From the NCBI GenBank assembly GCA_019058315.1, contig JAHPZH010000006.1, positions 96,001 to 160,000 of the forward strand: DNA of 64,000 nt. The letters run 5' to 3'. A model generated the notes under the pieces. The model saw only the letters and a list, made by a program, of their open reading frames with translations, did no database searches and was not told where the DNA came from. The stretch comes from Candidatus Helarchaeota archaeon (lineage in GTDB: Archaea; Asgardarchaeota; Lokiarchaeia; Helarchaeales; RDOG01). Of the stretch, positions 27,580-29,374 are shown one piece after another (the stretch's first letter is position 1; every line of letters starts with the position of its first letter). Position numbers and translations under genes: made by a program.

Positions 27580-28302
27580 TTATTTCAAGCATAATACCGC
27601 AACAGGTGTGGATGCTTTTCTCCATTGTGCCATCTTTGAATCTGGGTCATAAGACATGGATATTTCTTTTCTTCCATGATTTCCTACTATCATTATAAGA
27701 GAATTTGGTGCTGCTTGTTTATACATACTCAACATCCACTTATCTGTCCTATGGATTAATCTTTTAATTAAGTTCTCAGGAGGACCACGTTTATAAATTG
27801 GATTTTGATATAAATTTTCGAAATCTAGGAAATGTATCCATTGAAAATCAAATCTATTCAAATATTTGGAAGCAGATACCCACGTATTTGTATCCATCTT
27901 AGTGGGAATAACTTTTGATGTTCCTGCATAAGTTATAAGATCTTCTTGTCTACCAATCATTAGAGTTGTTTTGGAATTTTGATTTAAATATGACATAAGA
28001 TTAAAATCTTTATTTTGAAGATCTCCATGAAAAATTTGGTGTAAAACCTCATTAGCAAGAGGTTGCTCAGTTTCTAATAATATTAAAGCTTTAGATTGAC
28101 TTATGACAAATTCGGGTTTGTGAACCACAATCTCAAATAATCCAAAGTTATCTAACATTATCAAAATAATACGTTCTATTGGGGGAGTCTTCATTTGAAT
28201 GGGTTCAGGTAAATTATTTGGAATTGTGATGCCAAATAAGTGTAAAATAGTTGAAGTTAGTGCTGGCATTGGTGCATTAATTGATGGTAAATCATCACTC
28301 AA
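27580..28302 (-). CDS. Small, divergent alkaline-phosphatase-superfamily-like protein
   Basis: RIILIMLDNFGL and IMIVGNHG resemble the AP core motifs (LDG, DHG); only 240 aa. Confidence 0.5.
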   Translation of the reverse strand: MSDDLPSINAPMPALTSTILHLFGITIPNNLPEPIQMKTPPIERIILIMLDNFGLFEIVVHKPEFVISQSKALILLETEQPLANEVLHQIFHGDLQNKDFNLMSYLNQNSKTTLMIGRQEDLITYAGTSKVIPTKMDTNTWVSASKYLNRFDFQWIHFLDFENLYQNPIYKRGPPENLIKRLIHRTDKWMLSMYKQAAPNSLIMIVGNHGRKEISMSYDPDSKMAQWRKASTPVAVLCLK

Positions 28303-28465: not shown

Positions 28466-28591
28466 TGGAGCCTCAGCCGGGGAACGATCCCGGGACCTTT
28501 GCCTTTCTGGCAGATATTATTACCAGGGCAACGCTTTACCGTTGAAATTTTCAGATCGGCATGATTTTTCTACCAACTGAGCTACTGAGGC
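28466..28591 (-). tRNA. tRNA-Thr(GGT); introns at 22/23 (28536-28569, probably two tandem introns) and 37/38 (28505-28520); CCA encoded
   Basis: Spliced: GCCTCAG TA GCTC AGTTGGTA GAGC G TTGCC CTGGTAA GGCAA AGGTC CCGGG ATCGTTC CCCGG CTGAGGC TCCA; anticodon BHB helix CTGG/CCAG. Confidence 0.9.
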
Positions 28592-29174: not shown

Positions 29175-29250
29175 TGGAGCCTCTGGGGGGATTCGAACCC
29201 CCGACCATTGGCTTACAAGGCCAGCGCTCTACCAACTGAGCCACAGAGGC
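29175..29250 (-). tRNA. tRNA-Thr(TGT), intronless, CCA encoded
   Basis: GCCTCTG...TGGC CTTGTAA GCCA...GGGGG TTCGAAT CCCCC CAGAGGC TCCA. Confidence 0.96.
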
Positions 29251-29265
29251 ATTATTTAGATGATA

Positions 29266-29374
29266 TGGTGGGAAAGGTGAGATTTGAACTCACGATCCCG
29301 TGGTTTCTTTTTGATCCTTTACAATTTTCGGATATCCCAAGCCACGAATCATAGCCAAGCTAGACCACTTTCCC
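29266..29374 (-). tRNA. tRNA-Pro(TGG); canonical 37/38 intron (29305-29335, 31 nt); CCA encoded
   Basis: GGGAAAG/CTTTCCC acceptor, CGTGG CTTGGG|A CCACG anticodon arm, GTGAG TTCAAAT CTCAC T arm. Confidence 0.92.

Follow-up and report, generated by a model that had tools for sequence, protein, structure and literature searches.

A candidate pair of abutting, order-dependent introns in the D-arm of a Helarchaeales tRNA-Thr(GGT) gene

Nested multi-intron pre-tRNAs that are spliced sequentially are known from Crenarchaeota (Thermoproteales) (Sugahara et al. 2007 RNA 13:671 and Tocchini-Valentini et al. 2009 PNAS 106:20246, as relayed in passages of PMC3978253), and the same passages describe nested introns whose last BHB motif is productive only after the other intron has been removed (PMC3978253). 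For Asgard archaea, passages of two later reports (PMC11291895, 2024; Goswami et al. 2026, bioRxiv 10.64898/2026.10.13.758758) describe heavily interrupted tRNA genes, D-arm inserts missed by tools of the tRNAscan-SE type, and introns gained repeatedly at the same positions; abutting pairs and splicing order are not described in those passages. How introns enter tRNA genes is called unresolved in the relevant passage of the 2026 census of Asgard tRNA introns.

Here we describe a tRNA-Thr(GGT) gene whose D-arm insert we read, with a probability of roughly 85%, as two abutting BHB introns that would be removed in two ordered steps. Since archaeal tRNAs with several introns are already known to be spliced in order, the mechanism itself is not new. 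As in the Crenarchaeal nested pre-tRNAs, one pre-tRNA would carry several EndA-type introns, and each step would involve two cuts and one ligation. Unlike those introns, the two units lie end to end at one exon position (22/23) and not one inside the other, and one 4-nt strand would be used twice, first as the 5' and then as the 3' strand. The host also differs, being an Asgard (Helarchaeales-type) archaeon, as does the apparent preservation of the single-intron precursor state in a sister clade. The end-to-end D-arm layout, its conservation with one compensatory change, and that preserved single-intron state are what appears distinctive here. The locus further resembles published Asgard tRNA introns, many of which are non-canonical, D-arm inserts especially. 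It resembles most specifically the single 22/23 Thr(GGU) intron of Lokiarchaeia/Helarchaeales relatives, which shares its position, its exon motif (T/C)GGT AG^ and its end, RCCG + 2 nt ^AGC (carets mark cleavage sites). Unlike that intron, the insert in the window's clade has an extra 11-21-nt unit ending in YGGT AA before the exon; this unit separates the RCCG end from the exon, and the one-step motif is therefore lost.

By the window we mean the whole stretch of 64,000 nucleotides that was analysed (positions 96,001 to 160,000 of contig JAHPZH010000006.1, assembly GCA_019058315.1). Within it, Thr(GGT) is the last member of a minus-strand tRNA array comprising an intron-split gene (~29500-29380), Pro, Thr(TGT), Met, Leu(TAA) and Thr(GGT). 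It is the sole Thr(GGT) candidate of the 5.8-Mb assembly, a genome-wide scan having turned up no further GGT anticodon arm in tRNA context. Neither ARAGORN nor Rfam detects the unspliced gene. Its parts, and the competing motif discussed below, are as follows.

28466..28591, minus strand: tRNA-Thr(GGT) gene, 126 nt including the encoded CCA.
28570..28591, minus strand: exon 1, tRNA positions 1-22, ending ..AGTTGGTAG, consistent with orthologues.
28572..28575, minus strand: TGGT, exon strand (H5) of the step-2 central helix, from the motif parse.
28555..28569, minus strand: upstream candidate intron, 15 nt, AAAAATCATGCCGAT, in the context TGGT AG^A aaaatcat GCCG AT^A, predicted to be removed second.
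28557..28560, minus strand: GCCG, the shared strand, H5 of the step-1 helix and H3 of the step-2 helix.
28536..28554, minus strand: downstream candidate intron, 19 nt, CTGAAAATTTCAACGGTAA, in the context GCCG AT^C tgaaaatttcaa CGGT AA^A, predicted to be removed first.
28538..28541, minus strand: CGGT, intron strand (H3) of the step-1 helix, from the motif parse.
28521..28535, minus strand: exon 2, tRNA positions 23-37 (AGCGTTGCCCTGGTA).
28505..28520, minus strand: canonical 16-nt anticodon-loop intron at 37/38, CTGG TA^A..CCAG AA^A, with 4 Watson-Crick pairs and h = 5.
28466..28504, minus strand: exon 3, tRNA positions 38-76 including CCA, T-loop ATCGTTC.
28539..28571, minus strand: rival or decoy one-step BHB intron, 33 nt, GTTG GT^A gaa..ttt CAAC GG^T.

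Read out along the minus strand, the D-arm region runs GCCTCAGTAGCTCAGTTGGTAG, AAAAATCATGCCGAT (28569-28555), CTGAAAATTTCAACGGTAA (28554-28536), AGCGTTGCC..., and the gene as a whole consists of GCCTCAGTAGCTCAGTTGGTAG, the 34-nt insert (28569-28536), AGCGTTGCCCTGGTA, the 16-nt anticodon intron and AGGCAAAGGTCCCGGGATCGTTCCCCGGCTGAGGCTCCA. The insert sits between G22 and A23. The D-arm of exon 1 is identical to that of the paralogue Thr(TGT), GCTCAGTTGGTAGAGCG, and its (T/C)GGT AG^ motif is also used by the single 22/23 introns of relatives. When three introns of 15, 19 and 16 nt are removed, the number assigned to this gene by the first-pass annotation, ARAGORN calls a 76-nt tRNA-Thr(ggt) with every stem perfectly paired; it calls no tRNA in the primary transcript or in the splicing intermediate. 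The T-loop (28482-28488) has A54 and U58 in place of T54/A58, and GATC replacing GTTC is also found in Thr(GGT) of relatives and of unrelated metagenome archaea.

Other tRNA genes of the assembly have irregularities of their own. In the window, the 37/38 intron of Pro(TGG) (29269-29374) forms 3/4 central-helix pairs in the expected register (CTTG vs AAAG), and no strict BHB route yields the expected product. Outside the window, Thr(CGT) (G000:C1:253400-253530) carries 31 extra nucleotides in the anticodon stem (29/30); this insert folds into a long hairpin including the last three exon bases, and neither one nor two strict BHB steps would remove it. Also outside the window, G000:C3:627507-631783 holds a dense array of ~25 tRNA genes, many of low G+C or with odd arms, which duplicates isoacceptors encoded elsewhere, for instance His(GTG) there and at C6:72340; this may be a mobile-element or viral array.

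To enumerate splicing routes exhaustively in the pre-tRNA, we defined a strict BHB as a 4-bp helix with 3-nt bulges, cut after the second bulge base, and searched all intron removal orders of up to three steps. No one-step strict BHB restores GGTAG^AGC, because TGGT faces CGGT. The two-intron route at 22/23 proposed in the first-pass annotation emerged exactly as claimed: GCCG AT^C..CGGT AA^A takes out 19 nt, after which TGGT AG^A..GCCG AT^A takes out 15 nt. The accompanying claim that the 34-nt insert forms no BHB as a single intron also held, but a 33-nt one-step BHB that yields a slightly different D-arm had been missed. A second two-step route, one base out of register, removes 21 nt and then 13 nt, since the shared helix is really 5 bp long (TGCCG:CGGTA / TGGTA:TGCCG). 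The only canonical routes to the ancestral D-arm are thus the two-step ones through the shared strand, either 19+15 nt or the one-base shift. The step-1 motif conforms to the BHB definition with 3 Watson-Crick pairs and 1 G.U; the step-2 motif conforms with 2 Watson-Crick pairs, 2 G.U and h = 2, its inner helix nearly absent; the whole 34-nt insert taken as one intron does not conform.

The order of the two steps follows from the layout. If the upstream unit is excised first, TGGT is left facing CGGT and the helix is lost; because this excision removes the strand that the downstream unit needs, the order would be obligatory. The motif parse bears out the proposal that GCCG acts first as a 5' and then as a 3' strand, but this reuse is automatic when two introns abut and adds no extra coincidence. 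Moreover, 13.8% of shuffled inserts can also be taken apart in two steps by one route or another, and in quality the route observed here is at the median. From the window alone, the tandem decomposition is not beyond chance. Its significance comes from its conservation in relatives.

We reached the orthologues through a 240-aa gene lying just downstream of Thr(GGT) (window 27580-28302, minus strand), by fetching the contigs of its close homologues. On five contigs we found a Thr(GGT) orthologue in the gene order of the window, with Leu(TAA) followed by Thr(GGT) and the 240-aa gene. Together with the window's gene they form a set of six (the window, L126, L127, L129, L131 and the partial L130), all parsed with the same motif-parsing program. 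The orthologues read as follows, with unit lengths in brackets given as upstream+downstream.

L126: GCCG AA^T tttt CGGT AA^A (11 nt), then TGGT AG^A..GCCG AA^A (22 nt) [22+11].
L127: 21 nt first, then CGGT AG^G aataaa GCCG AA^A (13 nt) [13+21].
L129: GCCA AA^T ttttt TGGT AA^A (12 nt), then 22 nt [22+12].
L131: GCCG..AGGT (20 nt, with 3/4 pairs in the step-1 helix), then 12 nt [12+20].
L130: partial, at a contig end, with a 21-nt downstream unit.

In all six genes the insert has RCCR + 2 nt in its interior and terminates in YGGT AA^, with variable loops and lengths; the window's 19-nt downstream intron is plainly homologous to the 21-nt unit of L130. The shared strand is GCCG in five genes (the window's and four orthologues) and GCCA in one. 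That one, L129, carries a compensatory change, GCCG:CGGT to GCCA:TGGT, which converts one helix pair from G:C to A:U. The H3 strand of the orthologues is CGGT, TGGT or AGGT, always followed by AA^AGCG, and exon U17 against the shared strand appears across genes as U.G, C-G or U-A. These pair counts come from the motif parse; when the step-1 region was aligned with MAFFT, the fourth helix base was out of place. No one-step route exists in the window's gene or in the complete orthologues L126, L127, L129 and L131, and upstream-first excision in those four leaves a remnant without a central helix. The five orthologues thus share the abutting 22/23 layout predicted from the window's gene, and the predicted downstream-first order would be forced in 5/5 complete genes, each of which loses its central helix when the upstream unit goes first. 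We conclude that the tandem architecture is probably conserved under selection. The shared layout, the compensatory change and the lack of the rival helix in relatives are the reasons to prefer the tandem reading over the doubt left by the window alone.

Some features of this neighbourhood vary. Thr(TGT), intron-free in the window (29175-29250), has a T-loop intron in L126:1960-2050 and L127:2018-2125, which suggests that this intron was gained or lost recently inside the clade. Two contigs whose flanking protein is 83% identical (L124:1-268, L125:1-140) begin just upstream of the 240-aa gene, and no tRNA was found in the short stretch before it; the tRNA array there is either rearranged or lost at the assembly break. 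On contig P0015, no tRNA adjoins the 240-aa gene. L138:1505-1580 and L141:1316-1395 share a conserved G+C-rich element of ~70 nt (..GCCTCSGACGGGGATAACGCGATCA..CGCGTGGAGTT..) upstream of the 240-aa gene, which in that context precedes NikR-like, AIRC and Ni-insertion genes; the element, which may be a leader or small RNA, is absent from the window.

Other relatives carry a single intron at the same site (L114, L116-L122, L136, L138 and L139). In L136/L138 it is a strict 22/23 intron, CGGT AG^G gtcagaacgac GCCG AA^A (18 nt), and in L139 another, CGGT AG^A..ACCG AA^A (20 nt); their common pattern, CGGT AG^N..RCCG AA^AGCG, is that of the upstream unit alone, directly abutting the 3' exon. By position and by its 3' end (RCCG + 2 nt), the 15-nt upstream intron of the window is homologous to them. 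A phylum-wide pattern search found eight species in two genera of the same class with one strict intron of ~30 nt at exactly 22/23, with the exon motif (T/C)GGT AG^ and the end ACCG or GCTA + 2 nt ^AGC; the site and the exon side of the step-2 motif are therefore established in the group. A one-step strict BHB joining G22 to A23 was found in L136, L138, L139, L114 and L122. In L119 (G271:C133), the internal repeats TAGCAAC / TAGCTAC of the 22/23 intron are swapped relative to five sister species, and this swap disrupts the strict central helix. When the flanking protein is placed in a maximum-likelihood tree, all tandem carriers group in one clade (99/99), and the single-intron carriers belong to a neighbouring group (93/87).

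G001, of the same family, has an intron-free Thr(GGT), and G002 and G004, of the same order, have a Thr(GGT) without a D-arm intron. Among 60 GTDB relatives of the same family, order or class, together with a pattern search of five near genomes, only orthologues free of D-arm inserts were found. A pattern scan of contigs gave matches only in unrelated archaea (one of them labelled Aenigmatarchaeota) with other D-arm inserts, and a metagenome scan gave only intron-free genes of other archaea.

Predicted folding adds a ranking within the transcript. The predicted ground state of the primary transcript is a 12-bp helix with two 1-nt bulges (28551..28580, minus strand) that pairs exon U12-A23 with insert U28-A41 and is not a BHB (RNAfold pair probability 0.99; -9.5 kcal/mol, z = -3.2). 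It sequesters GCCG and competes with both BHB motifs, leaving the step-1 helix a probability of 0.002 (RNAfold), and might delay splicing or guard the splice sites. Folded in isolation, the 19-nt module adopts precisely the AUC 3-nt bulge (-6.0 kcal/mol, z = -2.7). Forcing a strict BHB on the primary transcript costs 5.2 kcal/mol for step 1, 8.1 for step 2 and 9.5 for the 33-nt alternative, and the step-2 BHB costs 7.2 kcal/mol in the intermediate; the step-1 motif is thus the cheapest among the BHB-competent conformers of the primary transcript. The 11 clear introns of the genome cost 0.25-4.7 kcal/mol, below 5.2 and 7.2, and the relatives' conserved 22/23 introns cost 5.4-11.8 kcal/mol. These ranges make only the within-transcript ranking informative, and it favours step 1 first. 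Absolute thermodynamics was dropped as an arbiter, the RNAfold helix probabilities of the clear introns spanning 0.02 to 0.84. The step-2 helix is already able to form in the primary transcript, and a cut there would lead to a dead end; hints as to how this might be avoided come solely from the energy ranking and the 12-bp helix.

We weighed three other explanations of the insert. The best of them, which we still regard as improbable, is that all 34 nt leave as one intron through non-canonical recognition, by a relaxed motif or by three cuts without a ligated intermediate, the GCCR/YGGU hairpin being merely internal structure. The same genome does contain inserts without a strict BHB route, in the anticodon stem of Thr(CGT), and an intron with 3/4 helix pairs, in Pro(TGG); moreover, only about one third of the Asgard D-arm inserts missed by tRNAscan-SE lie at canonical motifs according to a passage of bioRxiv 10.64898/2026.10.13.758758. 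Sequence inspection nevertheless shows TGGT and CGGT to be unpairable in any register, even with 1-3 nt bulges, so that any one-step motif would be missing the central helix, which is retained even in the relaxed hBH/HBh' motifs. The elements conserved across the clade, including the one compensatory change, are also exactly the strands needed for two strict motifs.

Less credible again, and in our judgement very improbable, is a single excision of 33 nt through GUUG GU^A..CAAC GG^U, with the tandem motifs coincidental. Its helix, formed by strands at 28577-28574 and 28544-28541, is a strict BHB comprising 4 Watson-Crick pairs plus a 3-bp inner helix (h' = 3), as good an alternative arises in just 0.5% of shuffled inserts, and ARAGORN accepts the product as a tRNA-Thr with a 3-bp D-stem. 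The D-arm would then read GGUUAAAGC, vs GGUAGAGC under the two-step model: the D-loop becomes AGUUGGUUA, and the D-arm, GCTC-AGTTGGTTA-AAGC, has a C13.A22 mismatch, although a 13.22 mismatch is also present in the paralogue Thr(CGT). Against this reading, the helix occurs solely in the window's gene and is absent from L126, L127, L129 and L131; to yield this product, exons that otherwise match the ancestral sequence need one additional U and the replacement of G22 by A, whereas G22 is present in all orthologues seen. The cut would fall at 20/21, without precedent in the group of relatives with 22/23 introns, and the folding cost is the highest of the three motifs. Conditional simulations prefer the tandem reading ~6- to 17-fold, which is not decisive. 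We rejected the 33-nt intron because its helix is found in no orthologue and its exons are non-ancestral. Least credible of all is a decaying or non-functional Thr(GGT) whose insert is never spliced: standard tRNA finders do miss the gene, yet it is the only such candidate in the assembly, its spliced product has perfectly paired stems throughout, and gene, synteny and motif strands are conserved across a clade in which the flanking protein has diverged to 74-80% identity.

We therefore return to the two abutting introns, which we propose are removed successively by the archaeal splicing endonuclease EndA and a ligase; the cleavage order and the intermediates below are inferred from motif logic. 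In step 1, GCCG would pair with CGGU near the 3' end of the insert, placing AU^C and AA^A in the bulges. EndA would then cut at U37^C38 and A56^A57, excising 19 nt, and ligation would give ..GCCGAU-AGCG.., with GCCG AU next to A23. In step 2, that GCCG would become the partner of exon UGGU, the bulges now holding AG^A and AU^A; EndA would cleave G22^A23 and U37^A23 to release 15 nt, and the final ligation would restore the G22-A23 junction of the D-stem. Removal of the anticodon intron would be independent of the D-arm steps. The genome encodes two divergent EndA paralogues (27% identity), at G000:C12:5149-5703 on the plus strand and G000:C1:331411-332016 on the minus strand, and both ORFs match PF01974 and PF02778 (101.5 and 76.5 bits). 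In the aligned region one has GIDHAPF and the other GVNPSKF; by our reading of the alignment, the GVNPSKF paralogue appears to lack the catalytic His. The pair would fit a heteromeric (alpha-beta)2 enzyme, a type that handles non-canonical sites (enzyme classes reviewed in PMC4090602).

As for origins, the upstream unit is most likely the older 22/23 intron, with the downstream unit added exactly at its 3' cleavage site; the first-pass annotation had suggested this insertion point, and the single upstream unit of the sister clade supports it. The simplest history would date the addition to the ancestor of one Helarchaeales subclade, the window's clade. Gain of the second unit appears more parsimonious than its precise loss in the sister clade, a direction we infer from the distribution of the two states. 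Loss could possibly have occurred by recombination with a copy of the splicing intermediate, a route that would itself still imply the two-step pathway. A search of the rest of the genome with 2 mismatches allowed revealed no paralogue of the 15-mer or the 19-mer in the context of a tRNA or an intron, and nothing therefore indicates that either unit is a copy of another intron. It is conceivable that foreign or excised RNA was ligated into the cleaved 3' splice site and then copied back into DNA, or that the helix strand of the exon itself was duplicated. The insert end CGGTAA^AGCG resembles a mature CGGTAG^AGCG, which the CGGTAG exon end of the sister clade implies for the ancestor. That an existing EndA cleavage and ligation site is a preferred entry point for a new intron, and the coincidence of positions not chance, is an idea we hold to be unlikely on balance; if it were true, abutting pairs would be footprints of BHB intron multiplication in Asgard tRNA genes.

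Motif-based annotators that expect one BHB per insert will misreport such genes. Taken together, the intron-free gene, the single 22/23 intron and the abutting pair form a natural series, in which one 4-nt strand would serve each side of the recognition helix in turn and a second intron lies exactly where the first would be cleaved. Given the existence of a dead-end route, this series offers a testable case for how splicing order is enforced, and also for how introns enter tRNA genes.
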